In this document: in pieces, positions 2,182 through 16,705 of the stretch | Layout: each line of letters opens with the position of its first letter | Numbering within the stretch: position 1 is the stretch's first letter | NCBI GenBank assembly: GCA_030019325.1 | Contig: JASEFB010000019.1 | Coordinates: forward strand, 1 to 22,617 | DNA from: an archaeon | GTDB taxonomy: Archaea; Halobacteriota; Syntropharchaeia; Alkanophagales; Methanospirareceae | Direction: 5' to 3' | Length of the DNA stretch: 22,617 nucleotides | Notes under the pieces: generated by a model | Seen by the model: only the letters and a program-made list of their open reading frames with translations | Told to the model about the DNA's origin: nothing | Databases searched by the model: none | Position numbers and translations under genes: made by a program

Positions 2182-2304
2182 ATGGCGACAAGTACAAACT
2201 CGATTGGCAAAAATAACGGTATCAGAATGTCAAGGCGGACGTTTACCAAACTGACAGCTTTGGGAACCGCAGCGGCTCTGAGTGGGATCAGCAGTGTCAG
2301 TGCA
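2182..2304 (+). other. Twin-arginine (Tat) signal peptide of the molybdoenzyme
   Basis: The n-region is followed by SRRTFTKL (consensus S/T-R-R-x-F-L-K), a hydrophobic stretch (TALGTAAALSGISSV) and an AxA-like site (VSA|IQ). Confidence 0.8.
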
Positions 2305-4992
2305 ATTCAAGATAAGTTCCCCCTGATTGAATCCGCGAGTGCATCCCCCGAGGAGCCCGGTGTAACGCTCGTGAAATCTACCTGTTCTCACTGTGCTGTG
2401 GGATGTGGATTCCAAGGTAAAATCCAGAAGGGGGTATGCATCGGTATCGAGCCATGGCTGGAGAATCCGATAAACCGCGGTTCGATGTGTTCCAAGGGAG
2501 CATCAATAGCAGAGATACTCAACTCTCCGCTCAGGCTGAAATATCCGATGGAAAAAGTCAATGGCCAGTGGAAGCAGATCTCATGGACCGAAGCTCTGGA
2601 TAAGATCGCCAACAAGATGAAGGAGATAAAGGCAACGTACGGGCCCGATTCGATCTTTTATATGGGGTCCGCCAAGGTGAGCAATGAAGAGTGCTACTTA
2701 TTCAGAAAATTTGCGGCATTTAACGGCACGAACAATGTAGACCATCAGGCGCGGATATGCCATTCCACAACTGTTGCTGGTTTGGCAAACACCTGGAGTT
2801 ACGGTGCGATGACCAACCCGTGGAACGACATGCGCCACTCAGGGGTGATTCTGTTCTGCGGTGAGAATGCAGCCGAGTCACACCCCGTTGCGATGCTGCA
2901 TATCCTTGAGGCGAAGAGAAGAGGTGCAAAGTTCATCGTGATGGATCCGCGATTCACAAAGTCAGCAGCAGCAGCAGATATGTACGTGCGGTTCAGGTCA
3001 GGAACAGACATTCCATTGATATGGGGAATATGTAATGTAATTGTGAATAACAACTGGCACAACAAGGATTTCATCGCAAAGAGAACATATGGGTTTGACA
3101 AATGGTGGGACGTGGTAAAGGAGTACACACCGGAAGTTGTGGAGGACATCACCTGGGTTCCGGCAGATACCATACGGCAGGTCGCTTATGATTGGGCATT
3201 CCCGCCACGTGGTGAAGGGTACGCTAATTGTATATGCTGGGCAATGGGTGCAACGCAGCACACTGTTGGCACGAATAACATCAGGTCGTTTGCCTGCCTT
3301 AGCTTGCTTATGGGCTATGCTGGCAGACCCGGTGGAGGAACCAATGCATTCAGAGGCCATGATAACGTGCAGGGTTCAACCGATATGTGCGTGCTTTCGC
3401 ACTGGCTTCCAGCATACTACGGGCTCGACGAGGGCTCGTGGAAGCACTGGATTGGCGTCTGGAATAGGCATGCACCAATAACCTACGAGGAGATGAAGGC
3501 GAAGTTCGCAGAGCACAATGGCAAGTCGCTGATGCACGTGAAAGGTATCACGGTCTCACGATGGTATGAAGGAGTACTCAATAGGGAATTCCCGATTAAT
3601 CAGCCAAACCCGATCAAGATGGCGTTTGTGTGGGGCCATTCGCTGAACTCGATCTCCGAGATGAAGCGTATGAAGGAGGCGATGGAACAGGTCGAATTGC
3701 TTGTTGGCGTCGACCCGCATGCGACGATTGCAGCATCCCTTGCAGACCGCCCCGACGGGATCATAATACTGCCTGCATCTACGCAATTTGAGGAAGAAGG
3801 AAGCGTTACGAACAGTGCGAGACAGGTGCAGTGGAGAAACAAACTGGTGGAACCCTTGTATGAGAGCAAGCCTGATTGGTGGATTATGCAGGAGCTTGCA
3901 AAGAGGCTTGGGTTCGGTGAGCACTTCACCTATACGAATATGGAGGATGTGCTCCGGGAGATTAACCTTGGATCTAACGTCATCATGATGCGCGAGTCCC
4001 CCGAGCGGCTCAAGCGACAGCAACTTCAATGTACAACAGAATGCAGCGTGTTCTCGTGTGAGGATTGCCAGGCAAAAAGTGGTCCTCTGAAAGGAGAATA
4101 TTGGGGACTCCCATGGCCCTGCTGGAATGATGAACATCCAGGAACACCGATATTATACCGAAATGATATACCGGTCTCAGAAGGGGGCAACGAATATAGA
4201 ACGAGATTCAGAGGTCCTGACTCCACACCCGGTAATCCATTATCGGACGATGGCGAGAGCATGTTAGGTGCGGCATACGGATACCCAGAAGGCTATGACG
4301 AAAAGAACTCTGATGGCACTGATGGTCCTGGATGGAAATTTGAGATTGATGCTGATTTCAAGGCGCTGATTGCGCAGAACATCTGCCCGTCAGGAGCAGG
4401 AAGAGCGAGATTCAGAGCCTGGAACTTGCCAGACCCTGTTCCCGTACACCGAGAACCGATAGAAAGTCCAAGACCTGATCTGGTTGATAAATATCCGACG
4501 TATGATGATGTTGCAGACCACTTCCGTGTCAAGTGCTTGTATAAGACGATACAGCAGGAACGGAAGAACCTGGTGAATGACTATCCCTACATACTCACTA
4601 CGGGAAGACAGGTGGAGCACATGGGTGGTGGCGCTGAGACACGGTCATGTGAATACCTTGTGGAGCTTCAGCCAGAGATGTATGCGGAGATAAATCCAAC
4701 AACAGCTTTGGAATTGGGTATCACGCATTGGGACTACATCTGGGTAGAGACGCTGAGAGGAAAATGCAAGGTGAGAGCGTATGTGACGGAGCGTGTGAAC
4801 GAGCAAACAATATTCATGCCTTACCACTGGGCAGGCTGGTTGGAAGGCGAGTCGTATGCGGACAGATGGCCTGAAGGAACAGGAGAACTCGCATATGGTG
4901 ATTCGTGTAATGTCATCACGGTAGACGGCTACGACAGGTCAACGAACATGCAAGAGACGAAAGTATGCTTGTGTAAGGTGTACAAGGCTTAG
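2182..4992 (+). CDS. fdhA: Tat-exported molybdopterin (bis-MGD) oxidoreductase catalytic subunit, FdnG/FdhA-type (formate-dehydrogenase-like), Cys variant
   Basis: 936-aa ORF with a GAGGTGA ribosome-binding site. It has a twin-arginine signal and an N-terminal [4Fe-4S] motif (CSHCAVGCGF...MCSKG). The block HQARICHSTTVAGLANTWSYGAMTNPW matches the FdnG active-site block, with Cys193 (TGC 2758-2760) then His where Sec enzymes have U-H. It also has the RGHDNVQG block (Arg391) and the FdnG-like Cys-rich insert (CTTECSVFSCEDC). Formate as substrate is inferred. Confidence 0.8.
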   Translation: MATSTNSIGKNNGIRMSRRTFTKLTALGTAAALSGISSVSAIQDKFPLIESASASPEEPGVTLVKSTCSHCAVGCGFQGKIQKGVCIGIEPWLENPINRGSMCSKGASIAEILNSPLRLKYPMEKVNGQWKQISWTEALDKIANKMKEIKATYGPDSIFYMGSAKVSNEECYLFRKFAAFNGTNNVDHQARICHSTTVAGLANTWSYGAMTNPWNDMRHSGVILFCGENAAESHPVAMLHILEAKRRGAKFIVMDPRFTKSAAAADMYVRFRSGTDIPLIWGICNVIVNNNWHNKDFIAKRTYGFDKWWDVVKEYTPEVVEDITWVPADTIRQVAYDWAFPPRGEGYANCICWAMGATQHTVGTNNIRSFACLSLLMGYAGRPGGGTNAFRGHDNVQGSTDMCVLSHWLPAYYGLDEGSWKHWIGVWNRHAPITYEEMKAKFAEHNGKSLMHVKGITVSRWYEGVLNREFPINQPNPIKMAFVWGHSLNSISEMKRMKEAMEQVELLVGVDPHATIAASLADRPDGIIILPASTQFEEEGSVTNSARQVQWRNKLVEPLYESKPDWWIMQELAKRLGFGEHFTYTNMEDVLREINLGSNVIMMRESPERLKRQQLQCTTECSVFSCEDCQAKSGPLKGEYWGLPWPCWNDEHPGTPILYRNDIPVSEGGNEYRTRFRGPDSTPGNPLSDDGESMLGAAYGYPEGYDEKNSDGTDGPGWKFEIDADFKALIAQNICPSGAGRARFRAWNLPDPVPVHREPIESPRPDLVDKYPTYDDVADHFRVKCLYKTIQQERKNLVNDYPYILTTGRQVEHMGGGAETRSCEYLVELQPEMYAEINPTTALELGITHWDYIWVETLRGKCKVRAYVTERVNEQTIFMPYHWAGWLEGESYADRWPEGTGELAYGDSCNVITVDGYDRSTNMQETKVCLCKVYKA

Positions 4993-5007
4993 GAGGCAAG
5001 GTGAAAG

Positions 5008-5550
5008 ATGGTAACCTATAAGTTCCTGAATGTGATTGAGAAATGCATAGACTGCGGAGCGTGTTTTGCGATCTGCAAGGACCAGAACAAGGTTCCTCAT
5101 GGAACAGCCAGAGTGCAGGTGGTGACAATTAACGAGGGGAGGCCCGGAGAGAAGAATATACCAGTCTCCTGTATGCACTGCACGGAACCTCCCTGTGAGG
5201 CTGCGTGTCCCGTGAAAGCGATCTACAAGCGAGAGGAGGACGGTATCGTTCTCATGGATAAGAACAAGTGTATAGGCTGCGGCTATTGCGGGTGGGCATG
5301 CCCGTTCGGAGCACCCCAGTATCCCCATGGCCTGCATGGTGACCTCAAGGAATGGGAAGGGATAATGGACAAGTGCACCTTATGCGTGCAGCCTTTTGTG
5401 CCACTGGAGAAGGAGAGAGAACCGAGCCCGAGGTGTGCGCTGTTCTGCTCGACAAAGGCTCGTCTTGGAGGGGATATAGCGGCAATATTACCAGTGTATA
5501 GAGAGAAAAAGGCGATATATACATCTCGCTGGCAAGAGCGTGTGCTATAA
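5008..5550 (+). CDS. Four-cluster [4Fe-4S] electron-transfer subunit (DmsB/PsrB/FdnH-type, without a C-terminal membrane helix)
   Basis: 180-aa ORF starting 16 nt after the catalytic gene, with a GGAGG ribosome-binding site. It has four Cys groups: CIDCGACFAIC, CMHCTEPPCEAACP, CIGCGYCGWACP and CTLCV...CALFC. There is no hydrophobic tail. Confidence 0.85.
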   Translation: MVTYKFLNVIEKCIDCGACFAICKDQNKVPHGTARVQVVTINEGRPGEKNIPVSCMHCTEPPCEAACPVKAIYKREEDGIVLMDKNKCIGCGYCGWACPFGAPQYPHGLHGDLKEWEGIMDKCTLCVQPFVPLEKEREPSPRCALFCSTKARLGGDIAAILPVYREKKAIYTSRWQERVL

Positions 5551-5572
5551 AGGAAAGGAGGAAGAGAGAACA

Positions 5573-6568
5573 ATGAGTAGTGCAGTTACCTCATACGTGA
5601 TATTCACGGTATTCAGTCAGATGTCGGTGGGTGCGTTGATAGCGATGGTCATCGCCGACTTCCTTGCAAAGGGTAAGGAGGATGCCAAGTTCTTTGAGAC
5701 CGGGGCATGGGTCAGTGTCCCGGTTGCCGTTATCGGCTTGATTGGTATACTTTCACACGAGGCACGACCGATGCTAGCAATGATGACGATGAATACAAAC
5801 CTAGCTACATCGTGGTTGAGCAGGGAAGTACTGTCATTAACGATTTTTGTCATCTTGGCGGTGATATATACCATAATGTGGCTCTTAGAGCCTGAATACG
5901 GTAGTCTCAAGAAATTTCCAGCAATACCATCGATCGTGGGGAAATTGATAGCACTCAGGAAGCCTGTTGGAGTCTTAGCTGCCATTGTGGGATTTGTATT
6001 CCTCGGTGTAAGTGCGAGAGCATACATGATGCCCACGCTCCCTGCATTAAATAATCCGACGACACCGTTGTTCTTCGTCGTTACCGCTCTGCTCGCGGGC
6101 ATAACGGCGGTAGCAGCAGTTCTTTCACTGAAATACCTGATAAAAAAAGAGGGCGACGAACCGTTAGCGCGCATGCTCTGGATTACGATGGGGATCGCAC
6201 TCGTAATGGTGATTGTGCTGATCGCGGGACTGCTTGCAAACAAGAGCATGTTAGCAGGCCCAGCCCCGACGAGATACGCAGGTGTTGCACTTGAGAAAAC
6301 GCTTGCAAGTATGTTAGAGGGCGATTACGCCACGCTCTACCTGGCACGATGGGTGATAGGCGTTGGTCTGGCACTCATCTTCACCGTAGCACTTGCATTG
6401 CCGCTGAAGAAGAGAAGTATGGCAGTGGCATCAGCACTAGCAATTTTGCTGTTTATCGTCGTGCTCATCGGTGAGATTATGGGACGGACAGTGTTCTTCG
6501 GTACAAACGTGCCCCTTCGTGAGGTATTTCCCAATATCGAGGCATTCTATACCGGAATAGGACTATAA
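5573..6568 (+). CDS. Integral membrane anchor subunit, DmsC-like (eight predicted helices, no obvious heme-ligand pattern)
   Basis: I prefer the ATG at 5573 (GGAGG upstream) over the track's GTG at 5540, which overlaps the previous gene. Eight hydrophobic segments. The N-terminal block VIFTVFSQMSVGALIA and the C-terminal block LIGEIMGRTVFFG resemble E. coli DmsC as I recall it (IFTVFGQCVAGGFI, LAGELIGRGVFYG). Confidence 0.65.
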   Translation: MSSAVTSYVIFTVFSQMSVGALIAMVIADFLAKGKEDAKFFETGAWVSVPVAVIGLIGILSHEARPMLAMMTMNTNLATSWLSREVLSLTIFVILAVIYTIMWLLEPEYGSLKKFPAIPSIVGKLIALRKPVGVLAAIVGFVFLGVSARAYMMPTLPALNNPTTPLFFVVTALLAGITAVAAVLSLKYLIKKEGDEPLARMLWITMGIALVMVIVLIAGLLANKSMLAGPAPTRYAGVALEKTLASMLEGDYATLYLARWVIGVGLALIFTVALALPLKKRSMAVASALAILLFIVVLIGEIMGRTVFFGTNVPLREVFPNIEAFYTGIGL

Positions 6569-6581
6569 TAAAATAAAAAAA

Positions 6582-6637
6582 TGGTTGTGGAGTCAAACTT
6601 TAAGAAAGTTTGAAAGTTTGGCGACAATCCACAACCA
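6582..6637. terminator. Bidirectional terminator-like nested hairpin between convergent genes
   Basis: The outer stem TGGTTGTGG (6582-6590) pairs with CCACAACCA (6629-6637). The inner stem CAAACTTT (6594-6601) pairs with AAAGTTTG (6605-6612), and AAAGTTTG repeats in tandem at 6613-6620. An A-run lies upstream (6571-6580) and a T-run downstream (6645-6655), so either strand reads hairpin then oligo-U. Confidence 0.55.
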
Positions 6638-6761
6638 ACTGCTCTTTTTTTATTTTCGATTTCTTAGAATGTGACGCCTCTGTCTTACTCTACGTAGATT
6701 TGAATTTGAAAATTCAATGGCTAGTTTTCCCTTTTCCTTTCGAGACGAGAGATTTTCAATC

Positions 6762-7094
6762 CTACTTAGAAGAGGATTCCACCTTTGCCTTAACTTCCGC
6801 TTCTAACTCCTCGTCGGTCTTCCCTTCGGTATCTATACCCAAGTACGCAGCCACTTCCCTTATGTTGAGATCTGCAGTCTTGGCCTTCGGTTTTGCCTTC
6901 GTTTTCGGTACTGCTTCTTCCTCGCCCACAGATTCTTCGAATTTTTTTAAGTCGAGTTCCGCCTCTCGTTTTGCTTTTTTGAACTCGCCCATTGCCTGTC
7001 CGAAAGACCGCGCAAGCTGTGGCACCTTCGCTGCACCGAATAACAAAACAATCGCCACGATTCCTATTACAATCATCTCCGTTGTACCTATCAT
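6762..7094 (-). CDS. tatA: Sec-independent (Tat) translocase subunit TatA/E
   Basis: 110 aa. It has a single N-terminal helix followed by an amphipathic helix (MIVIGIVAIVLLFGAAKVPQLARSFGQAMGEFKKA) and a charged tail. There is a strong GGAGGAG ribosome-binding site (complement of 7105-7111). Confidence 0.85.
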   Translation of the reverse strand: MIGTTEMIVIGIVAIVLLFGAAKVPQLARSFGQAMGEFKKAKREAELDLKKFEESVGEEEAVPKTKAKPKAKTADLNIREVAAYLGIDTEGKTDEELEAEVKAKVESSSK

Positions 7095-7144
7095 TGCCTT
7101 TTTACTCCTCCTACGAGTGGTATATTTATAGAAGAAATAAGGTG

Positions 7145-7216: not shown

Positions 7217-7966
7217 CTACCTATCCTTACGCCCGATATATCGTGTCATGAGTAATCCGAGCTCGAACAGTGCTATTGAAACCACGGCCATGATCATCGA
7301 AATACCCGTGGGATCGGAGAAGACGAAGATAGCGATTCCTATTATCAGCCCGTAGATTATCAATCGCTTATCCTTGAGCCATGAATACGTGACGAGCTTC
7401 ATCTTTACCGCTAAAGTCATTATGAAGGGTATTTGAAAGATCAACCCGAATCCCACCGCAGTATAAAGGATGATTGAGAAAATCCGTTTTGCGGAAAGCG
7501 CAACCCGTGCAATGTCTCCTGAGTAAGCGATGAGGTAACTGAAGATCAGCGGAAGGACGAAGAGATAGGCGAAGACTGCACCGAGACCATAACAGCAGAG
7601 CGAAGGAATGGTAACCATCAGGAAAAATTTTCGCTCTGAGGGATATAAACCAGGTCGCATAAATGCGAATGTCTCATATACTAACAATGGTATCGTTACA
7701 GAAAGAGCGCATAAGAAGGAGAACAAAAGCCTCACGCTTATCCATTCCATCGGGCTGTACACGAATATGGAGATATCTTCGGAGAATAGATTGATAAATA
7801 AGAAGCGAAGAGAGATATTTGAAAGAGGGAAGATGATAAGAGTAACAACAGCGAGGGGGATTAAAAGAATGATGAGTCTTCTTCGTAGTTCGATGAGATG
7901 CTCTATTAGTGGAATCTCTTCATCTCCTATCGGTCCACTTACTCTATCATTTCCGATTCTTTCCAT
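7217..7966 (-). CDS. tatC: Tat translocase subunit TatC (paralog 1)
   Basis: 249 aa with six hydrophobic segments. It has the canonical N-terminal TatC block IPLIEHLIELRRRLI. The usual TPPD..SQ block is divergent (FSDPTGISM). An AGGGGGAA ribosome-binding site precedes the ATG. Confidence 0.8.
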   Translation of the reverse strand: MERIGNDRVSGPIGDEEIPLIEHLIELRRRLIILLIPLAVVTLIIFPLSNISLRFLFINLFSEDISIFVYSPMEWISVRLLFSFLCALSVTIPLLVYETFAFMRPGLYPSERKFFLMVTIPSLCCYGLGAVFAYLFVLPLIFSYLIAYSGDIARVALSAKRIFSIILYTAVGFGLIFQIPFIMTLAVKMKLVTYSWLKDKRLIIYGLIIGIAIFVFSDPTGISMIMAVVSIALFELGLLMTRYIGRKDR

Positions 7967-7992
7967 TTTTCCCCCTTTAGGAGCGATTGAAG

Positions 7993-8736
7993 ATGGCGAG
8001 CATTACTGAGGAATTTGGGTATATATTAGTGGCGATAAAGAGAAAAATCCTGCTCATTCTTGCCGTTATATTTGCTGGTTTCATTGGTTCATTTCAATTT
8101 TTAGACCCCGTGTTACGAAAGATAACACAAGACCTCCTCCCTGAAGGTGCAACCCTCATCTATATCTCACCCGTGGAGGTAATAATGCTCAAGTTAAAAA
8201 TGGCTTTTTTCATAGGCATAATACTCGCCTCCCCTCTTGTATGCTATTATGTGTATAAGACATTGAAAGTGAGATTTGGGATACAGAATCCAATGAAAAA
8301 ATCCCGGCTCATCATATTGCTGACTTCCGCCATTACTTTGTTTATTTTAGGGATAAGTTATGCTTATTTCCTTATGTTACCTCTTGTTTTAAATTATCTC
8401 CACTACCTGTCAGCATCAGTTGGAGTTGTCGCCACCTACTCCATATACGAATTTATATCGTTCGTCATCATACTAACGCTCATACTGGGAATAGCCTTTG
8501 AAGTCCCTATCTTTATCGTCTTTGCGGTTCAATCCGGTCTTGTCCAGATAGCGACCCTGAAGGAATATAGGCGGTACGTGATTGTGGCAATGTTTGTTCT
8601 CGCTGCACTTGTTACACCTCCTGACGTGGTGAGCCAGCTCGTCGTCGCATTCCCGCTGGTAATTTTCTATGAGATTGGGATTACCGTTGCGAGCATGGTC
8701 ACGCGGAAACGTTCAGTTCCGATTCAAGCTTCTTAG
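7993..8736 (+). CDS. tatC: Tat translocase subunit TatC (paralog 2, divergent N-terminus)
   Basis: I prefer the ATG at 7993 (AGGAG at 7979-7983, 9-nt spacer) over the track's TTG at 7987. Six hydrophobic segments. It has the canonical TatC block LVTPPDVVSQLV, but the N-terminal block is degenerate (ILVAIKRKILLIL instead of HL.ELR.R). Confidence 0.8.
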   Translation: MASITEEFGYILVAIKRKILLILAVIFAGFIGSFQFLDPVLRKITQDLLPEGATLIYISPVEVIMLKLKMAFFIGIILASPLVCYYVYKTLKVRFGIQNPMKKSRLIILLTSAITLFILGISYAYFLMLPLVLNYLHYLSASVGVVATYSIYEFISFVIILTLILGIAFEVPIFIVFAVQSGLVQIATLKEYRRYVIVAMFVLAALVTPPDVVSQLVVAFPLVIFYEIGITVASMVTRKRSVPIQAS

Positions 8737-8824: not shown

Positions 8825-10579
8825 TTACCTTTGTTTTAGGTACTCGAGTATCGCTGCCTTGAGAAGAGGAAAGATCCTTAAATTCCGCTTTGCAGCTGGC
8901 CAACTCATGTGCATCTTCTCGTTGATGACCGCATTGAGCATCATATCGAACTCCGGTTTCAATTGCATTAATCGTTCTCGTTGGGCGGATTCGTCATTTA
9001 TCTCCTTTATCTTGTCTATTACGGTTGTAAGGTCAATTGCGAGCTTTATCCGCTCTTCCGTTCTCTTGAATGAAGCATAGTCAATCAATCCGTATTCCAT
9101 CTTCAATCTGTTCAGTCCAAGCCCAGCTCGATACGTGCAATCTACAATCTCGTCTCGTGTCATCCAGTTGGTCTCGTAATTCAGCGCGTATTTCCAACTC
9201 GGCGATAGCAGTGCTTTTCGATGGTCCTCAAACGTGTTAAAAAGAATCTTATATCCAAACTTTTCGGGATGCTCGTATAAGCTGCATCCGGGGTCAAGAA
9301 AGGGGGAATAAGGTAAAATAAATGGTACAACGCGTGTACCAAATTTCTCCATCAGATACCCACACCAATCCACCGTCTCCATGACCGATTCGCGGGTCTG
9401 GAAAGGGAGACCAATCATGAAGAACAAATCAAATCTGTTGCACCCCGAATCCAAAGCCCACCCTATATTCTTCTCAACCACTTCATTCGTATACCGCTTC
9501 CCCTCTATCGCTCTTATCCGCTCGTCATGGCTATCTGGCGATAGTTCAAAATTGAAGTTTTCAACAGATTCCGCCATGAGTTCAAAATAGTCCTTCGGTG
9601 CAGCATTGAACAACTCAAACACGAGATGATTGTTGAATTCCGCCTTTTTCAAGACTTCCAAGACGGTGTAAGCGTATTCTTCGCCTGGCTGGAGGAGGTC
9701 ACCGATAACGAATATGGGTGCTTTCGTATATTTCGTGATTTTTAGAATGTCCTCGGCAATTAATTGCGGGTCCCGAAAAGCGGGTTTCTTCCGATTGCAG
9801 TATACTGCAAGTGCATTCTTGGAACCTCCACAGAATGTGCAATTATGGATACAGCCACGACAGGTTATCACCGGCGTGATCGGGTAGTCCAACCACTCGT
9901 GGGAAGACCAGCCTTTCCATGGGCTCAGACTTCCGACATCACGGTATTTCAGAGCCGATTTGAAAACAGGGAGGTAATTATTAGAAAATTCGTTCAATTC
10001 GGTTGGAACATGAGTGAGGGGGTTTATATGCACCTCCCCGCTGCTATCCCTCCATACAAGGTTTGGGAGTGTGCTGATGGTGGAATAAGAATGGTGAATA
10101 ATCGCTTTCATGAGCTGGAGCAGGGGCTCTTCGGCTGAATCCCCCCTTATGATAAAATCCACCTCAGGATAGCGAATCAACTCTTCATGGAAGTACGTTG
10201 CGGAAAATCCACCGAAGATGATGGGTATGCAGGGATGATATTTCTTGCAGAGCTTCGCTACTTCGAGGCTCCCCTGTGCATGAGCAAGCCAATGGAGATC
10301 AATTCCAAAAGCCACTGGTTTAAGCCTGCGTATCATCTTTTCTGGATCAAAACCATCGTTACTGAGCATTCTCACCGCTAAATTGATGATCCTTACCCCT
10401 ATCCCATTTCTCTCCAGATGTTCCACGATAGAGAAAAATCCGATCGGATACATCTCGAATACGGGAGTTGAGGGGACCCCATCAGCAATCGGACCGAACA
10501 TTATGGGATACTTCCGAAAATCATACACGGTTGGTGCATGGAGTAAGATTAAATGAGGATTGGAGGGCACGATGCTCAT
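8825..10579 (-). CDS. B12-binding-domain radical SAM protein (class B-like), function unknown
   Basis: 584 aa. The N-terminal region is Rossmann-like and resembles a cobalamin-binding domain (FGIDLHWLAHAQGSLEVAKLCKKYHPCIPIIFGGFSATY). The radical SAM motif is CRGCIHNCTFCGG (CxxxCxxC). The start ATG overlaps the stop of the upstream protease gene (ATGA at 10576-10579). Confidence 0.75.
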   Translation of the reverse strand: MSIVPSNPHLILLHAPTVYDFRKYPIMFGPIADGVPSTPVFEMYPIGFFSIVEHLERNGIGVRIINLAVRMLSNDGFDPEKMIRRLKPVAFGIDLHWLAHAQGSLEVAKLCKKYHPCIPIIFGGFSATYFHEELIRYPEVDFIIRGDSAEEPLLQLMKAIIHHSYSTISTLPNLVWRDSSGEVHINPLTHVPTELNEFSNNYLPVFKSALKYRDVGSLSPWKGWSSHEWLDYPITPVITCRGCIHNCTFCGGSKNALAVYCNRKKPAFRDPQLIAEDILKITKYTKAPIFVIGDLLQPGEEYAYTVLEVLKKAEFNNHLVFELFNAAPKDYFELMAESVENFNFELSPDSHDERIRAIEGKRYTNEVVEKNIGWALDSGCNRFDLFFMIGLPFQTRESVMETVDWCGYLMEKFGTRVVPFILPYSPFLDPGCSLYEHPEKFGYKILFNTFEDHRKALLSPSWKYALNYETNWMTRDEIVDCTYRAGLGLNRLKMEYGLIDYASFKRTEERIKLAIDLTTVIDKIKEINDESAQRERLMQLKPEFDMMLNAVINEKMHMSWPAAKRNLRIFPLLKAAILEYLKQR

Positions 10580-11061
10580 TTTTTCCCGATCTCTCCCAAA
10601 ACGAGATTTACCACTTTAGGAACCGCTTCTTTTACCTTTGTAGTCATTTCCTCGGTGAACTTCTCTATCTCCTCGACTTCTATCGCAAATATCACGATCT
10701 CACGAGGCATCTCCTCAGGCATAAGCTTGTTGCCTACTTCTATTACCGTTGGAAAGTTCAGATCATGCATTGACGTCGCGAGATGTACAGACTTGAAAAA
10801 GTCTTCTGGTCTTAGCCGGTATATTTCCCCTGGTTCACCTCCTTCTGTCTTTATCGCATCTATTATAACCACCTTGTCGTATCCCATGATGATGTCGAGC
10901 ACATTCAAACCACCCGTGCATGCATCTTCGATATCTATCGCGTCATCCCTTATCAGCCTCGCCAATTTCTGGGCTACATGAAAGCCTACGCCATCATCTC
11001 CTAAAATCGGATTCCCTATACCCAAAATAAGTATCTTCACTGTGCCGCACCTTTTTATCAT
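10576..11061 (-). CDS. [NiFe]-hydrogenase maturation endopeptidase (HycI/HyaD/FrhD family)
   Basis: 161 aa with ILILGIGNPILGDDGVGFHVAQKL, VVIIDAI and SMHD blocks, typical of the metal-binding Asp/Asp/His protease. An alternative GTG start at 11040 (AAAGGTG ribosome-binding site) would give the usual MKILILG N-terminus. Confidence 0.85.
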   Translation of the reverse strand: MIKRCGTVKILILGIGNPILGDDGVGFHVAQKLARLIRDDAIDIEDACTGGLNVLDIIMGYDKVVIIDAIKTEGGEPGEIYRLRPEDFFKSVHLATSMHDLNFPTVIEVGNKLMPEEMPREIVIFAIEVEEIEKFTEEMTTKVKEAVPKVVNLVLGEIGKK

Positions 11062-11452: not shown

Positions 11453-11878
11453 ATGGCAACAGAGAAGGAGGAATTTGAGCCTTTGATAGTAGGGATCACA
11501 TGCAATTGGTGCACATATGCAGCTGCGGACCTTGCAGGGACATCTCGTCTGAAATATCCGCCGAATATCAGATTGATACGGGTGATGTGCAGTTCGAGGA
11601 TACATCCTTCGTTCATACTGTATTCATTTGCGAGAGGTGCGGATGGTGTTTTTATTGGAGGCTGTCATCCCAAGGAGTGCCATTACATAAGCGGTCCCGA
11701 AAAAGCGTTACGAAGAATCGAATTGCTGAGGAGAATGATAGACCAATTTGGAATAGAGCCTGAGAGATTGAGATTGGAATGGTGTTCAGCGGCTGAAGGC
11801 GCGAAATTTGCACAGGAGGTGACTAATTTTACCCATAAGCTGAAGGAGTTAGGACCAAGCCCATTAAGAGGTCAATAG
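11453..11878 (+). CDS. mvhD: MvhD (F420-non-reducing hydrogenase / Hdr-associated [2Fe-2S] delta subunit), paralog 1
   Basis: 141 aa with the MvhD signature: CNWCTYAAADLAGTSR, RVMCSSRI and GGCHPKECHY. Confidence 0.9.
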   Translation: MATEKEEFEPLIVGITCNWCTYAAADLAGTSRLKYPPNIRLIRVMCSSRIHPSFILYSFARGADGVFIGGCHPKECHYISGPEKALRRIELLRRMIDQFGIEPERLRLEWCSAAEGAKFAQEVTNFTHKLKELGPSPLRGQ

Positions 11879-11900
11879 CGAGGAAAGGAGGAAAGAAGAG

Positions 11901-12950
11901 ATGGAGGAAGAGAAAAAGGAACCGAAAAAGAAGATAAAAATAGCATTATATTGGGCTGCAACCTGTGGAGGCTGTGATGTAGCAACGTTAGATATCGAAG
12001 AGAAGATACTGGATGTGATTAACATTGCTGATATCGTTCTGTGGCCCGTGGCAATGGACTTCAAGTATGAAGACGTGGAGAAGATGGAGCCGAAGAGCAT
12101 AGATGTATGTTTGTTCAACGGTGCAGTGCGGAATTCAGAGCATGAGGAGATAGCAAAGATGCTGCGAGAGAAATCAAAGGTGATGATCGCGTTCGGAAGC
12201 TGCGCGTGCTTTGGCGGGATACCAGGTCTGGGGAATGTAGCAAACAGAGAACAGATATTTAAGGTGGCATATAAAGACACACCTTCTACCGTGAACCCCG
12301 AGTTCGTCACACCGCAGACGGAGATGATGACGAATGGGGGAGAGAAGTTAACCCTTCCTGAATTCTGGAACACCGTGAAAACATTGGATCAGACGGTGGA
12401 TGTTGATTATTACGTTCCTGGCTGTCCGCCCACGGTGGATAGGATAAACGATGCGGTGGGAATATTAGCGAAATTTGCAGAGACAGGAGAACTTCCTCCA
12501 AAGGGTGCAGTTGTTGCTTTTGACAAAAACCTATGTGATGAATGTGAACGCAAGAGAGACGAGGAGAAGAAGATTAAACGTATATACAGACCTCATGAGC
12601 TCAAAGAGATAGATCCAGAGAAATGTCTATTGGACCAAGGGATCTTATGTATGGGACTTGCAACACGTGGGGGTTGTGGTGCTCGATGCGTAAACGCGAA
12701 CATGCCCTGCCGTGGTTGTTATGGCCCCTCGCCTGAGATAAAAGACCATGGTGCTGCGGTTTTGTCAGCAATTGCTTCTATCTTAGGAGTGGAAGATGAA
12801 GCTGAAATGATAGATATAGGGACACCAGAAGAGGTTGAAGAGTTGCTCAACCAGGTAAAAGACCCACTTGGCACCTTTTACCGGTTTACTCTGCCGAGTA
12901 GCATGTTAAAACGCGTGATTATAAAACCAGAGAAAGGAGGGGAGACGTGA
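11901..12950 (+). CDS. mvhG: [NiFe]-hydrogenase small subunit, MvhG type (group 3c)
   Basis: 349 aa. Proximal-cluster motifs are WAATCGGCDVA, GSCACFGGIPG and PGCPP. Distal and medial Cys groups are CDEC...C and GGCGARC...CRGC. There is a GGAAAGGAGG ribosome-binding site. Confidence 0.85.
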   Translation: MEEEKKEPKKKIKIALYWAATCGGCDVATLDIEEKILDVINIADIVLWPVAMDFKYEDVEKMEPKSIDVCLFNGAVRNSEHEEIAKMLREKSKVMIAFGSCACFGGIPGLGNVANREQIFKVAYKDTPSTVNPEFVTPQTEMMTNGGEKLTLPEFWNTVKTLDQTVDVDYYVPGCPPTVDRINDAVGILAKFAETGELPPKGAVVAFDKNLCDECERKRDEEKKIKRIYRPHELKEIDPEKCLLDQGILCMGLATRGGCGARCVNANMPCRGCYGPSPEIKDHGAAVLSAIASILGVEDEAEMIDIGTPEEVEELLNQVKDPLGTFYRFTLPSSMLKRVIIKPEKGGET

Positions 12951-12953
12951 AAA

Positions 12954-14552
12954 ATGGAGAAATTGAAGAGTTTATTCAGAAAGAAGGAAGAGCCAACGGT
13001 CGAAGAAGCAGAAAAGGAGCCAACAGTTGAAGTAGCAGAAAAGAAGCCAGAGGTCGCAGTGGAAGAAAAGAAACCAAAGGTTCCAGTGGCAGAAAGGAAG
13101 AAGGAAATAACGATTTCTCCTATAACGAGATTGGAAGGACATGGTAAGATATGTATATTCCTTGATGACGAAGGAAACGTGAAGGATGCTTACTTTCAGG
13201 TAGTAGAGCTAAGAGGATTCGAGCGATTCTGTATAGGTCGACCGGTAGAAGAAATACCTCGGATCGTGCCACGCATCTGTGGCGTATGCCCGTGGGCGCA
13301 TCACATGGCATCGACAAAAGCAAACGATGCGGTGTTCAATGCTGAACCAACGGATGCCGCGAAGAAATTACGTGAAATGGCGTATAATGCCCATATGATG
13401 CATTCCCATCAGCTCCATTTCTATGCATTAGGAGCTCCCGATTTCGTTCCTGGGCCAAAAGCAGACCCGGCAGAAAGGAACGTGGTGGGATTAATAGGAA
13501 AGGTTGGCGTAGAGTTAGGATTGGAAGTGATTAAGCACAGGGGATATGCGCAGCGGATACAGGAGATCGTCGGCGGTAAGGCGACGCACCCAGTCTGTGG
13601 TCTCCCAGGCGGCATGTCAAAGGCGTTGTCAGCAGAGGAACAAGCTGAGATAGAGGAAAAGGCGAAGAAGCTTTTAGATTTCAGTAAGAATACCCTTGAG
13701 ATATTCGACGACGTGGTATTGAAGAACAAGGACTACGTGGATATAATAACGGGCGATGTTTACTACCACAAGACCTATTACATGGGTTTGGTGGACAAGA
13801 ACAACAAGGTGAACTTCTACGAGGGCGACCTAAGGGTCGTGGATCCGAATGGTAACGAGTTTGTGAAATTCGTTCCGAAAGATTACCTGGATCACATATC
13901 AGAGGCTGTACTGCCGTGGTCGTATCTGAAATTCCCCTATTTGAAGGCCGTGGGCTGGAAAGGACTTGTAGACGGTCCGGAGAGCGGTATTTACCGGGTA
14001 GCTCCGTTAGCACGACTCAATGCCGCAGACGGCATGGCGACGGATGCAGCACAGGAAGCGTACGAAAAAATGTATGATGTCCTTGGTGGTAAGCCAGTAC
14101 ACAACACGCTCGCATTCCACTGGGCTCGGCTTATAGAGAATTTATACGCTGCGGAGCGGTGCTTGGAGTTGATACAGGACCCGGAGATTACCTCGAAGGA
14201 TGTACGAGGCGAGTTAGGAGAACCGGGAGAGGGCGTAGGAGTCGTAGAAGCCCCTCGCGGGACCCTGATCCACCATTACTGGGCGGATGAAGATGGAATA
14301 GCGAAGAAACTGAACATAATCGTTGCAACCGGGCACAACCATGGAGCAATGTGCATGTCGGTAAAAAAAGCGGCGCAGAATTTAATCAAGGATTGGCAAG
14401 TAGACCAGGGATTGTTGAATATGGTGGAGATGGCTTTCCGTGCATACGATCCCTGCCTCGCATGTGCAACGCATACACTACCAGGACAGATGCCTCTGGA
14501 GGTCAGTATATACGATGAAAAGGGAGATCTCTACCAGAAGCTGAAGAGGTGA
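12954..14552 (+). CDS. mvhA: [NiFe]-hydrogenase large subunit, MvhA type (group 3c), with an unusual N-terminal repeat extension
   Basis: 532 aa with RLEGHG, the N-terminal Ni-Fe motif RICGVCPWAHH and the C-terminal motif DPCLACATH. A 25-aa tail after the His is the expected endopeptidase substrate. About 51 extra residues precede the usual ITISPITRLEGHG start. An alternative GTG at 13086 is possible. Confidence 0.9.
   Translation: MEKLKSLFRKKEEPTVEEAEKEPTVEVAEKKPEVAVEEKKPKVPVAERKKEITISPITRLEGHGKICIFLDDEGNVKDAYFQVVELRGFERFCIGRPVEEIPRIVPRICGVCPWAHHMASTKANDAVFNAEPTDAAKKLREMAYNAHMMHSHQLHFYALGAPDFVPGPKADPAERNVVGLIGKVGVELGLEVIKHRGYAQRIQEIVGGKATHPVCGLPGGMSKALSAEEQAEIEEKAKKLLDFSKNTLEIFDDVVLKNKDYVDIITGDVYYHKTYYMGLVDKNNKVNFYEGDLRVVDPNGNEFVKFVPKDYLDHISEAVLPWSYLKFPYLKAVGWKGLVDGPESGIYRVAPLARLNAADGMATDAAQEAYEKMYDVLGGKPVHNTLAFHWARLIENLYAAERCLELIQDPEITSKDVRGELGEPGEGVGVVEAPRGTLIHHYWADEDGIAKKLNIIVATGHNHGAMCMSVKKAAQNLIKDWQVDQGLLNMVEMAFRAYDPCLACATHTLPGQMPLEVSIYDEKGDLYQKLKR
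12987..13103 (+). repeat. Four degenerate 9-10-codon tandem repeats (EPTVEEAEK / EPTVEVAEKK / PEVAVEEKK / PKVPVAERKK) within the 5' end of mvhA
   Basis: The periodicity is visible in both the protein and the DNA (gagccaacggtcgaagaagcagaaaag / gagccaacagttgaagtagcagaaaagaag / ccagaggtcgcagtggaagaaaagaaa / ccaaaggttccagtggcagaaaggaag). Confidence 0.7.
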
Positions 14553-14569
14553 AAAGGAGGTGAAAAGAA

Positions 14570-16705
14570 ATGGCGGAAGAGAAAGAAGAACCTGAAAAAG
14601 AAGAGGTTAAAGAAGAAGAGCCTATAGAAGAGCCTAAAATTGGTATATATGTATGCCATTGTGGGATAAATATAAAGAATACCGTAGATGTGGATGCAGT
14701 AAGGGATTATGCGGCAACGCTGCCAAACGTGGTACTCGCCAAGGACTACATGTATGTGTGCTCAGACCCCGGACAGGAGATAATAAAGCAGGATATCAGA
14801 GAAGGAAGGGTAAACAGGGTGATAGTAGCTGCGTGCTCTCCTCGATTACACGAGCCCACTTTCAGAAAGACCTGTATCTCGGAGGGTCTTAATCCCTTCT
14901 TCTTTGAGATGGCGAACATACGAGAGCAGTGCAGTTGGGTATGGGAAGATAAGGCAACAAACACTGAGAAAGCGAAGGATATCGTAAGAAGCACGGTTGC
15001 TCGATCAAACCTTCTGGAGCCACTTGAGGAGAAGGAAGTGGATGTTGTTCCAGAGACACTGGTTATCGGAGGCGGGATATCAGGGATGTATGCTGCTCTG
15101 GATATCGCAAATGCAGGCTACACAGTTCATCTCTTGGAGAGACTGCCATCAATTGGCGGGCACATGCTTCAATTTGATAAGACATTCCCAACGCTCGATT
15201 GTGCCGCCTGTATTCTGACGCCGAGGATGGTAGATGTTGGAAAGCATCCTAACATAGACCTGTTGAGTTACTCGGAAGTGGAGGAAATCGGAGGCTCGGT
15301 CGGTAATTTCACGGTAAAGGTAAGGAGAAAGCCGAGATATATAGTTGAGAAGGACCCTGTTACAGGCGCAATAGTTTGCACGGGGTGCGGTTTATGTGCG
15401 ACTGCATGCAGGATGAAAAAAATCCCAAATGAATTTGACCTCGGGTTAGGGATGAGAACTGCTGCCTACTTGCCTATGCCACAAGCAGTGCCTGCATGTT
15501 ATACTATTGACCCGGAGAAATGTATAATGCTGACGAAAGGAAAATGTGGGAAAGCAACGCTTGAATCTACAGGGGAAGCAATTAAAAGAATAAAGAGTGG
15601 AGAAGTTACTGTAGAAGAAGTTAAAGATGAAATTCCTCTCTGCGTAGCTACCTGTGGTCCGAACTGTATCGACTTCGACATGAAAGACGAGATTGTGGAG
15701 CTAAACGTCGGAACAATTATTGTAGCAACAGGCACAGATGTTATAGACCCGGCGCTGCAGCCCGAATACAAATATGGCGTATATCCAAATGTCATTCACG
15801 GATTAGAGATGGAAAGACTGCTGGCTCCTAATGGTCCCACACAGGGTAAGGTCATCATAAACGGTAAAGAGCCAAAGGATATTGTGTTCATACAGTGCGC
15901 TGGTTCGAGGAACAAGCAAACGGGGTATGAATACTGCTCTCGTGTATGTTGCATGTATTCAATAAAGCATGCACATCTGATCAAAGAGCGGATACACGAT
16001 GCCAACATATCAATCCTCTATCAGGACATCAGAGCTTATGGAAAGGCTTTTGAGGAGTTCTATGATAGAATCAAAGGCGAAGGTATCAACTTCCGAAGAG
16101 GACTTGCATCCGAGGTATATCAAAGACCTGGCAGTGATCGACTGGTGGTAAGAGGAGAGGATACGATGCTTGGCGAACCGTATGAGTTAGAGGCAGACCT
16201 TGTGGTGCTTGCTACCGGATTGAGACCGAGTGACGGCGTGGAAAAGGTGGTAAGGCTGACAAAACTCTCGCAATCCGCTGACAAGTTCTTCTTAGAAGCG
16301 CATCCAAAGCTCAGACCTGTTGATACCGCAATAGACGGTATATTTGTTGCAGGGTGTTGCCAAGGTCCCAAAGATATTCCTGATAGCGTTGCCCAGGCGA
16401 AAGCCGCATCTTCTGCTTCGCTTATCTACTTAGGCACGGGAAAAGCGAAATTAGAAGCGATAACATCCGAGATAAACGAGGAGCTCTGCACAGGATGCAG
16501 GACTTGCGAAGCACTTTGTCCGTATGACGCTCTCGAATTCGATGCAGAGGAAAAGGTAATGAGAGTAAACGAGGCTATTTGTAAGGGATGTGGATGTTGC
16601 AATGGAGCATGTCCATCCGGTGCAGCCTCAATGCGGCATTTCAGGGATAGACAGGTATATGCACAAATAGAGGCATTAACAGAAGCGTTAGCTCCGCCCT
16701 CATAG
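14570..16705 (+). CDS. hdrA: Heterodisulfide reductase subunit A (HdrA), full-length canonical architecture
   Basis: 711 aa. The N-terminal domain reads IGIYVCHCGINI...VAACSP...REQCSWVW. The FAD fold is LVIGGGISGMYAALDIANAGY. The inserted ferredoxin domain begins CTGCGLCATAC. The Cys block is FIQCAGSRNKQTGYEYCSRVCCMY. The C-terminal ferredoxin has 2x CxxCxxCxxxCP (CTGCRTCEALCP, CKGCGCCNGACP). Confidence 0.9.
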   Translation: MAEEKEEPEKEEVKEEEPIEEPKIGIYVCHCGINIKNTVDVDAVRDYAATLPNVVLAKDYMYVCSDPGQEIIKQDIREGRVNRVIVAACSPRLHEPTFRKTCISEGLNPFFFEMANIREQCSWVWEDKATNTEKAKDIVRSTVARSNLLEPLEEKEVDVVPETLVIGGGISGMYAALDIANAGYTVHLLERLPSIGGHMLQFDKTFPTLDCAACILTPRMVDVGKHPNIDLLSYSEVEEIGGSVGNFTVKVRRKPRYIVEKDPVTGAIVCTGCGLCATACRMKKIPNEFDLGLGMRTAAYLPMPQAVPACYTIDPEKCIMLTKGKCGKATLESTGEAIKRIKSGEVTVEEVKDEIPLCVATCGPNCIDFDMKDEIVELNVGTIIVATGTDVIDPALQPEYKYGVYPNVIHGLEMERLLAPNGPTQGKVIINGKEPKDIVFIQCAGSRNKQTGYEYCSRVCCMYSIKHAHLIKERIHDANISILYQDIRAYGKAFEEFYDRIKGEGINFRRGLASEVYQRPGSDRLVVRGEDTMLGEPYELEADLVVLATGLRPSDGVEKVVRLTKLSQSADKFFLEAHPKLRPVDTAIDGIFVAGCCQGPKDIPDSVAQAKAASSASLIYLGTGKAKLEAITSEINEELCTGCRTCEALCPYDALEFDAEEKVMRVNEAICKGCGCCNGACPSGAASMRHFRDRQVYAQIEALTEALAPPS

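Follow-up and report, generated by a model that had tools for sequence, protein, structure and literature searches.

The window analysed here, i.e. the whole stretch of 22,617 bases of contig JASEFB010000019.1 (assembly GCA_030019325.1; about 47% G+C), contains three closely spaced genes on the plus strand, at positions 2182-4992, 5008-5550 and 5540-6568. The operon is genuine and encodes an exported formate dehydrogenase of a methane-oxidising archaeon of the ANME-1 group (anaerobic methanotrophic archaea, group 1), composed of a catalytic subunit (FdhA), an iron-sulfur subunit (FdhB) and a membrane anchor. A preliminary description of this DNA had listed the three open reading frames (ORFs), which the translations confirm, and had correctly sensed that the operon is unusual relative to Escherichia coli. 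The features of the operon are the following.

2182..4992, plus strand: fdhA, catalytic subunit of the Shewanella FdhABC type with a molybdenum/tungsten bis(pyranopterin guanine dinucleotide) cofactor (Mo/W-bis-PGD), 936 amino acids (Pfam, NCBIfam, 9VAP_A, FdhH alignment, tree)
2182..2304, plus strand: predicted twin-arginine signal peptide of FdhA, residues 1-41 (translation and family alignment; cleavage site deduced from these)
5008..5550, plus strand: fdhB, electron-transfer subunit with four [4Fe-4S] clusters, 180 amino acids, without signal peptide or membrane helix (16 Cys; 9VAP_B; FDH3_beta)
5540..6568 (GTG start, 342 amino acids) or 5573..6568 (ATG start, 331 amino acids), plus strand: DmsC/NrfD-family anchor with eight helices, haem-free, with a predicted menaquinone site (Pfam; DmsC alignment; AlphaFold2)

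Judged by sequence affiliation the host is an ANME-1 archaeon, because the nearest public locus is found in an ANME-1 metagenome-assembled genome (MAG; FdhA 78% identical) and the next in a Methanophagales MAG, and because the rest of the window, with its mvh and hdr gene clusters, fits this assignment. The archaeal origin proposed earlier is thus correct. The genome to which the window belongs (G000) is 88% complete and split into 327 contigs, and all absences reported below for this genome refer to that state of assembly.

FdhA starts with the twin-arginine translocation (Tat) motif S17-R-R-T-F-T-K-L, followed in the translation by a hydrophobic stretch up to VSA41. Across the family alignment R18, R19 and F21 hardly vary, and cleavage after VSA41 is likely. 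Downstream of the signal lie the cysteines of the FS0 cluster (C68, C71, C75 and C103), the active-site motif ICHSTT with Cys193-His194, and the motif RGHDNVQG with Arg391. In a BLASTP alignment Cys193, His194 and Arg391 fall on SeCys140 (selenocysteine), His141 and Arg333 of E. coli FdhH, and the active-site residues are invariant in 15 diverse members of the family. The Tat signal, the Cys-His pair and the Arg block, and with them the active-site signature of a formate dehydrogenase, are therefore as first described.

Pfam recognises the domains Molybdop_Fe4S4, Molybdopterin and Molydop_binding in FdhA. The best solved relative is the Shewanella protein 9VAP_A (E 1e-248, 831 bits, residues 14-936), with which about half of the residues are identical. 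The next 23 matches in the PDB belong to the formate dehydrogenase family (FdhF of the hydrogen-dependent CO2 reductase HDCR, the F420-dependent enzyme, FdhH, Desulfovibrio FdhA, FdnG and YjgC), one of them being deposited as probable oxidoreductase YjgC, and FdnG among them reaches 264 bits. The first clearly different enzyme is NapA with 182 bits, as compared to 831 bits for 9VAP_A. Every NCBIfam match stays under its curated cut-off, including Fdh-alpha (549 bits, cut-off 666) and the alpha-subunit model of E. coli formate dehydrogenase N (Fdh-N), TIGR01553 (387 bits, cut-off 814.2). In a quick IQ-TREE run with 56 sequences FdhA falls inside a clade of 52 members, supported by an SH-aLRT value (Shimodaira-Hasegawa-like approximate likelihood ratio test) of 99, which includes sequences from Deferribacter, Ferrimonas, Vibrio, Archaeoglobaceae, Halodesulfurarchaeum and Methanonatronarchaeia. 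E. coli FdnG, FdhF, NapA and DmsA remain outside as four very long branches; the tree supports the monophyly of the clade, and the order of these outgroup branches is not reliable. Placement in the tree and the low score against TIGR01553 rule out the FdnG-type identity that had been assigned to the catalytic subunit.

FdhB contains 16 cysteines in four ferredoxin motifs and lacks a hydrophobic helix, and its alignment with FdnH ends about 100 residues before the C-terminal helix of the latter; it is the anchorless four-cluster protein of 180 residues that had been noted. Its supposed descent from DmsB was not borne out. In the PDB FdhB matches 9VAP_B (E 3e-40), the best NCBIfam model is FDH3_beta (171 bits, cut-off 240), and sequence identity amounts to 45-56% with FdhB proteins of the clade, as compared to 34% with DmsB and 32% with FdnH, which rules out a DmsB-type partner. 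A small anchorless FdhB is the rule in the Shewanella-type FdhABC clade, and by these comparisons FdhA and FdhB form a cognate pair of that clade. The earlier view that both partners were swapped relative to FdnH and FdnI hence applies to one of them: FdhB is native to the clade, and only the third subunit is exchanged, a DmsC-like protein taking the place of the cytochrome b FdhC.

The anchor matches both the DmsC (70.1 bits, cut-off 22.3) and the NrfD (45 bits, cut-off 25.8) families of Pfam. Since DmsC and NrfD form one superfamily, a match to NrfD or PsrC is no refutation of a DmsC-like anchor. Eight helices are found both in a hydropathy scan and in an AlphaFold2 model. The ORF beginning with GTG at 5540 is present as described, but database gene calls place the start at the ATG at 5573 (331 amino acids), and residue numbers given here count from that ATG (add 11 for the GTG start). 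From the ATG the protein contains one histidine and no cysteine, and the GTG form has a single cysteine within its extra N-terminal residues; bis-histidine haem binding is therefore ruled out, and the haem-free eight-helix nature of the anchor is confirmed. This gene is the only NrfD-family match in the genome, in which a tblastn search with two FdhC cytochromes b as queries found no cytochrome b FdhC.

An alignment of the anchor with E. coli DmsC (28% identity, E 2e-9) covers almost the entire protein, and in it H62, E85, S80, E301 and R305 correspond to DmsC His65, Glu87, Ser82, Glu267 and Arg271. These DmsC residues make up the quinol site and the helix-8 gate (PMC8076601). As cited in the relevant passages of that work, replacement of His65 blocks quinol oxidation, and Glu87 is important for quinone/quinol coordination. 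Glu85, Glu301 and Arg305 do not vary across 29 family members and E. coli DmsC, and conservation of His62 and Ser80 reaches at least 90%. The ANME-1 family further differs from DmsC in having about 25 extra residues inserted between helices 3 and 4, and in a C-terminal extension. A sequence search of the PDB with the anchor gave no match, and only the fold search recognised it. The AlphaFold2 model, computed from the family alignment (predicted local distance difference test, pLDDT, 87.3; predicted template modelling score, pTM, 0.86), has an NrfD-like fold of two four-helix bundles. The top Foldseek matches are the ActC chains 6LOD_C, 8K9E_C, 6BTM_C and 6F0K_C (E 7.5e-6 to 1.9e-4, template modelling score 0.62-0.68), followed at lower ranks by ActF and PsrC (2VPW_C, rank 13). 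ActC is the quinone-binding subunit of alternative complex III. Taken together, the anchor is predicted to carry a menaquinone site near its outer face.

A census of the order's 68 species-level genomes found the anchor gene in 31 (12 of the 23 of high quality), from 9 of 15 genera, and FdhA at E <= 1e-100 in 30. In these loci fdhB directly follows fdhA wherever the contig reaches, and the anchor gene lies directly 3' of fdhB in 29 of the 29 loci that extend beyond its 5' end. A sample of 400 genomes of the phylum outside the order yielded the full cassette in one further family (locus L121), in the order FdhX-like, TorD, FdhA, FdhB and anchor.

In all six cytochrome-b-type relatives tested (L003, L015, L020, L029, L054 and L076; from Deferribacter, Chromatiaceae, Nitrospirae, Ferrimonas, a Methanocellaceae MAG and Halodesulfurarchaeum), the product of the gene after fdhB is a cytochrome b (Pfam Ni_hydr_CYTB), which has 5-7 helices and contains 8-11 histidines. 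In the window and in L002, a Methanophagales locus, this slot is taken by the DmsC-like gene. Partners differ even among three FdhA proteins with 80-83% mutual identity: the DmsC-like protein (L002), a cytochrome b (L054) and a c-type cytochrome of 175 amino acids with a PGF-CTERM anchor, encoded directly after fdhB (L023; 8799-9837 including the fdhB gene). Because such close relatives differ in their partner, the exchange appears to be recent. A further locus, L001, whose FdhA is 78% identical to that of the window, has no membrane subunit; its shortened FdhB is encoded at 6066-6530, and a multihaem c-type cytochrome of 355 amino acids is encoded beyond the tat genes (9454-10521). In both cytochrome-c versions (L001 and L023) FdhB lacks the last ~25 residues. 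Both versions are without the membrane subunit, and the shortening is taken as a hint that this tail docks on it.

The operon is adjoined by genes of the Tat export system, of which the minus-strand tatA was overlooked in the first reading:

6762..7094, minus strand: tatA, 110 amino acids, converging on the fdh operon (Pfam TatA_B_E 54.5 bits)
7217..7966, minus strand: tatC copy 1, 249 amino acids (Pfam TatC 141 bits; TIGR00945 136 bits)
7987..8736, plus strand: tatC copy 2, 249 amino acids, divergent from copy 1 (Pfam TatC 151 bits; NCBIfam TatC-Arch 179 bits, cut-off 192.6)

In L001 the cassette is likewise succeeded by tatA and a divergent pair of tatC genes. Of 30 related ANME-1 loci, 20 have a convergent tatA at this place, usually with tatC behind it, and this recurrence suggests a dedicated export unit. 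A plus-strand ORF at 6610-7131 has no match in Pfam or any other family and overlaps the opposite-strand tatA, of which it is probably the shadow; it was rejected as a gene. Maturation genes are present elsewhere in the genome. FdhD is encoded on contig C299, as the preliminary description had suggested checking, and an FdhX-like protein with Fe-S and MvhD domains together with a TorD-family chaperone is encoded on contig C209 (16030-18838), unlinked to fdh. The latter two are 65-72% identical to the pair that adjoins fdhA in L001 and L002. A FocA-type formate channel was not found in the genome; relatives were not searched for it.

With respect to the electron acceptor, a quinone or methanophenazine pool had been left as alternatives. 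The quinone is supported by the conserved site residues and by the MqnA/MqnD family, which 57 of the order's 68 genomes contain and which has been reported for ANME-1 (Chadwick et al., 2022; PMC9012536). Because MqnA/MqnD occurs across the order, methanophenazine is an unlikely carrier, though less firmly so for this strain, in whose genome MqnA/D was not found. The genome also encodes a complex I H subunit of the Fqo type.

Gene content, homology, conserved residues, fold and linkage, from which we infer the substrate, the quinone type, the direction of operation and a lack of charge separation, make it probable that this operon encodes a membrane-bound, outward-facing formate:quinone oxidoreductase, with menaquinone as the most likely quinone. 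According to this model, FdhA would fold with its Mo/W cofactor in the cytoplasm, assisted by FdhD and the FdhX/FdhT-like pair encoded elsewhere. FdhA and FdhB would then be exported through the adjacent TatA/TatC system, FdhB presumably bound to FdhA (piggy-back), and FdhAB would dock on the haem-free DmsC-type subunit. Formate would be oxidised outside the cell at the Cys-ligated metal site, and electrons would run through FS0 and then through the four clusters of FdhB (five Fe-S clusters), to reach, close to the anchor's outer face, a quinone site built from the equivalents of DmsC His65/Glu87. The reaction should be electroneutral, or else weakly coupled via an NrfD-type proton path, because a di-haem cytochrome b is missing and both half-reactions would lie on the same side of the membrane, leaving little or no charge separation. 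The standard potentials are about -430 mV for CO2/formate and about -75 mV for menaquinone. By these textbook values electron transfer from menaquinol to CO2 would be about 350 mV uphill, and hence formate oxidation would be the favoured direction.

The ANME-1 formate dehydrogenase with a DmsC-like anchor is already known. Chadwick et al. (2022, PLoS Biol; PMC9012536) described secreted formate dehydrogenases from five ANME-1 genomes; in four of these the cluster also contains DmsC-like genes, and the proposal was that their products anchor the enzyme and link it to membrane quinol. Nothing essential differs between that system and the one in the window. In the fifth, fosmid-based genome no DmsC-like gene was noted, and it resembles locus L001; according to the passage on it in the same paper, the fosmid-based ANME-1 genome had earlier been drawn with a free or cytochrome-c-anchored enzyme. 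What is new here is incremental: the census (31 of 68 species genomes, 9 of 15 genera), the conservation of the quinol site, the fold model, the linkage to tatA/tatC and the recent exchange of partners. Its value lies in confirmation, in the wider census covering about half of the order's species genomes, and in concrete residues for a biochemical test. An outward-facing formate dehydrogenase on the quinone pool bears on how ANME-1 passes electrons from methane oxidation to its partner organisms and on whether it takes up or releases formate; it counts among the few candidate places at which a diffusible carrier could enter or leave.

The periplasmic Shewanella oneidensis enzyme FdhA1B1C1 (So_4507-4511) interconverts CO2 and formate, and 9VAP is its FdhAB part; the gene cluster comprises the chaperone FdhT, the accessory protein FdhX, FdhA, FdhB and the cytochrome b FdhC (PMC13066108). 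The two systems share a Tat-signal FdhA with a Cys ligand, a small anchorless four-cluster FdhB, and FdhX-like and FdhT (TorD-family) genes. They differ in the third subunit, which is a cytochrome b in Shewanella and a haem-free DmsC-type protein here, and in the location of the accessory genes, which in the window's genome lie on the separate contig C209.

E. coli Fdh-N (FdnGHI, PDB 1KQF), which reduces menaquinone, likewise is an outward-facing Mo-bis-PGD enzyme with a Tat signal and a four-cluster beta subunit. However, FdnG is a distant outgroup (264 bits versus 831 for 9VAP) and uses selenocysteine, and FdnH has a C-terminal membrane helix that FdhB lacks. Moreover, di-haem FdnI carries electrons to a quinone site at the inner face in a proton-motive redox loop, a path which does not exist in the window's enzyme. 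With a haem-free anchor in place of a di-haem cytochrome b, the redox loop would be lost and the energy yield should change, and the enzyme may be freed from haem b. E. coli DmsC resembles the anchor in being a haem-free protein of eight helices from the same Pfam family, with 28% identity and the five site residues conserved, but it serves an S-/N-oxide reductase with a quinol oxidase site, whereas the ANME-1 site would be a quinone reductase site.

An uncharacterised formate:quinone oxidoreductase 'FqoABC' with an NrfD-like subunit has been proposed from genomes (Calisto and Pereira, 2021; PMC8076601). It resembles the present enzyme in that FdnGH-like peripheral subunits sit on an NrfD-like subunit of eight helices. 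The FqoC group is reported from Chlorobi, Actinobacteria, Crenarchaeota, Chloroflexi and Deltaproteobacteria, with the signature Tyr16, Asp65, Ser81, Tyr147 and Thr148 (PMC8076601). FqoC has Asp65 at the helix-2 position, where the ANME-1 anchor, like DmsC, has His, as part of a His/Glu pair that typifies DmsC and SoeC. Set apart in this way from the published description of FqoC, the ANME-1 anchor would fall into a different NrfD subgroup and is probably a separate recruitment.

Several points weigh against a menaquinone-reducing formate dehydrogenase. Published tests, as cited in the passages of Chadwick et al. (2022; PMC9012536) that deal with intermediates, argue against formate as the main intermediate in consortia performing anaerobic oxidation of methane, and added formate did not stimulate cultures of Ca. 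Alkanophaga (Zehnle et al., 2023; PMC10322722), the formate dehydrogenases of which were moderately expressed (Zehnle et al., 2023; PMC10322722). The DmsC-like topology, with the His/Glu loop outside, is favoured only modestly by the positive-inside count of Lys and Arg (9 versus 5). MqnA/D was not found in the window's genome; it is present in other genomes of the genus, and the gap is probably due to assembly. McrA was not found in the window's genome either. All three other genomes of the genus do encode it, as do 47 of the 68 genomes from the order, frequently at the end of a contig, and we therefore read its absence here as an assembly gap. A search of the window's genome gave no c3-type multihaem cytochrome, relatives not having been searched. 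Finally, no RNA sequencing run containing the locus is listed, and the shares in DNA runs are small, at most 0.08.

Electrons might also flow in the reverse direction, such that quinol from methane oxidation would reduce CO2 to extracellular formate, driven by the proton-motive force via an NrfD-type proton path, and formate would be the diffusible carrier to the sulfate-reducing partner. Formate was discussed as a possible intermediate by Chadwick et al. (2022; PMC9012536), who placed the enzyme in this setting. Mo/W formate dehydrogenases including Shewanella FdhAB are reversible (PMC13066108), the conserved Glu301/Arg305 pair occupies the proposed gate position of NrfD-like proton paths, and the cassette is widespread (31 of 68 genomes) in a syntrophic order. 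We nevertheless regard this direction as unlikely. From textbook potentials it would cost about 68 kJ/mol per two electrons (the ~350 mV mentioned above), which is far beyond what one or two protons per electron pair could provide, and a quinone site on the P-side without a transmembrane electron path offers no obvious coupling. The experiments cited in the passages on formate in PMC9012536 and PMC10322722 also speak against formate as the main carrier.

It is also conceivable that the DmsC-like protein only docks FdhAB to the membrane and that electrons leave to extracellular c-type cytochromes or to another carrier, not to quinone. The close relative L001 lacks a membrane subunit and has its multihaem c-type cytochrome gene beyond the tat genes, L023 has the small PGF-CTERM c-type cytochrome directly after fdhB, and Meyerdierks et al. 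(2010), as far as cited in PMC9012536, drew the enzyme free or cytochrome-anchored. A purely passive anchor would, however, leave the (near-)invariant His62, Glu85, Ser80 and Glu301/Arg305, common to bacterial DmsC, hard to explain; no c3-type multihaem cytochrome was detected in the window's genome, and the C-terminally shortened FdhB of the cytochrome-c versions suggests a different mode of docking. We therefore hold electron transfer to quinone to be the better account and a merely docking role to be improbable. That FdhA acts on a substrate other than formate despite its Cys-His/Arg signature appears very improbable: all NCBIfam matches are below their cut-offs, a similar FdhB-like/DmsC-like pair serves a PhsA/ArrA-like subunit in other ANME-1 genomes, and Chadwick et al. 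(PMC9012536) advise caution as the substrates of other ANME FdhA homologues are unknown, but FdhA shares about half of its residues over the full length with a demonstrated formate dehydrogenase (9VAP_A), all PDB matches that score higher than NapA carry the name formate dehydrogenase, the YjgC entry excepted, the clade is monophyletic with a support of 99, and the active-site residues do not vary among the 15 members compared.

Relatives of the cassette were also observed in other combinations. A mosaic operon (L123 / L086, G052:C24) encodes an FdhA that is about 51-58% identical to that of the window, together with an FdhB of 89% and an anchor of 82-83% identity, a contrast which points to recombination at the fdhA/fdhB junction. 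Two other ANME-1 genera (L124, G031:C75, 2546-6327, minus strand; L102/L125, G065) encode an FdhB-like protein (49-50%) and a DmsC-like anchor (65-67%) after a PhsA/ArrA-like subunit of 754 amino acids with a Tat signal, which scores 484 bits against the PhsA model and 250 bits against ArrA, both under cut-off. ACR3, ArsF-like and ArsG-like genes adjoin L124 in G031, and this type of enzyme may be a reductase of sulfur or arsenic compounds that reuses the same electron-transfer cassette. In another family of the phylum (L120, G083:C2, 6323-10994, minus strand), a DmsC-like anchor with 41% identity is clustered with a four-cluster Fe-S protein bearing a Tat signal and with a tungsten enzyme of the aldehyde:ferredoxin oxidoreductase (AOR) family (AFOR_N, AFOR_C). 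An ORF resembling aminoimidazole ribonucleotide (AIR) carboxylase lies between the anchor and Fe-S genes. By its gene content this locus looks like an exported, membrane-anchored AOR-type enzyme.

Because FdhA occurs with three types of partner, the pair is reused with a PhsA/ArrA-like subunit and the L123 / L086 operon is mosaic, one may speculate that the ANME-1 FdhB and DmsC-like pair is a portable electron-transfer cassette which has been repeatedly re-coupled and, as an extension, that the DmsC form is coupled to the proton-motive force and reduces CO2. We consider this combined proposition improbable. If the DmsC form were so coupled and did run towards CO2 reduction, it would let electrons of the quinol pool leave ANME-1 as formate while methane is oxidised.

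The remaining genes of the window surround the fdh and tat genes. Upstream of fdhA, a minus-strand gene at 145-1452 encodes a fusion protein of 435 amino acids with a ResA/TlpA-like thioredoxin-fold domain and a DsbD-type transmembrane domain, presumably a supplier of extracytoplasmic thiol-disulfide reductant. It is separated from fdhA by a small ORF of no known family: the minus-strand ORF at 1496-1903 (135 amino acids), divergent from fdhA, has no Pfam or NCBIfam match and no usable Atlas neighbour. Between the tat genes and a maturation protease of the HycI/HybD type (10576-11061, minus strand) lies a gene for a B12-binding radical SAM protein (8825-10579, minus strand; TIGR04190, 629 bits). 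The protease gene is followed by a complete mvhD-mvhG-mvhA [NiFe] hydrogenase with hdrA at 11453-16705, and a second cluster comprises mvhD, an frhB-like gene, hdrC, hdrB and a fused hdrA. MvhA and MvhG are missing from most ANME groups (Chadwick et al., 2022; PMC9012536), and the mvh set of the window therefore places this genus in the hydrogenase-bearing minority.

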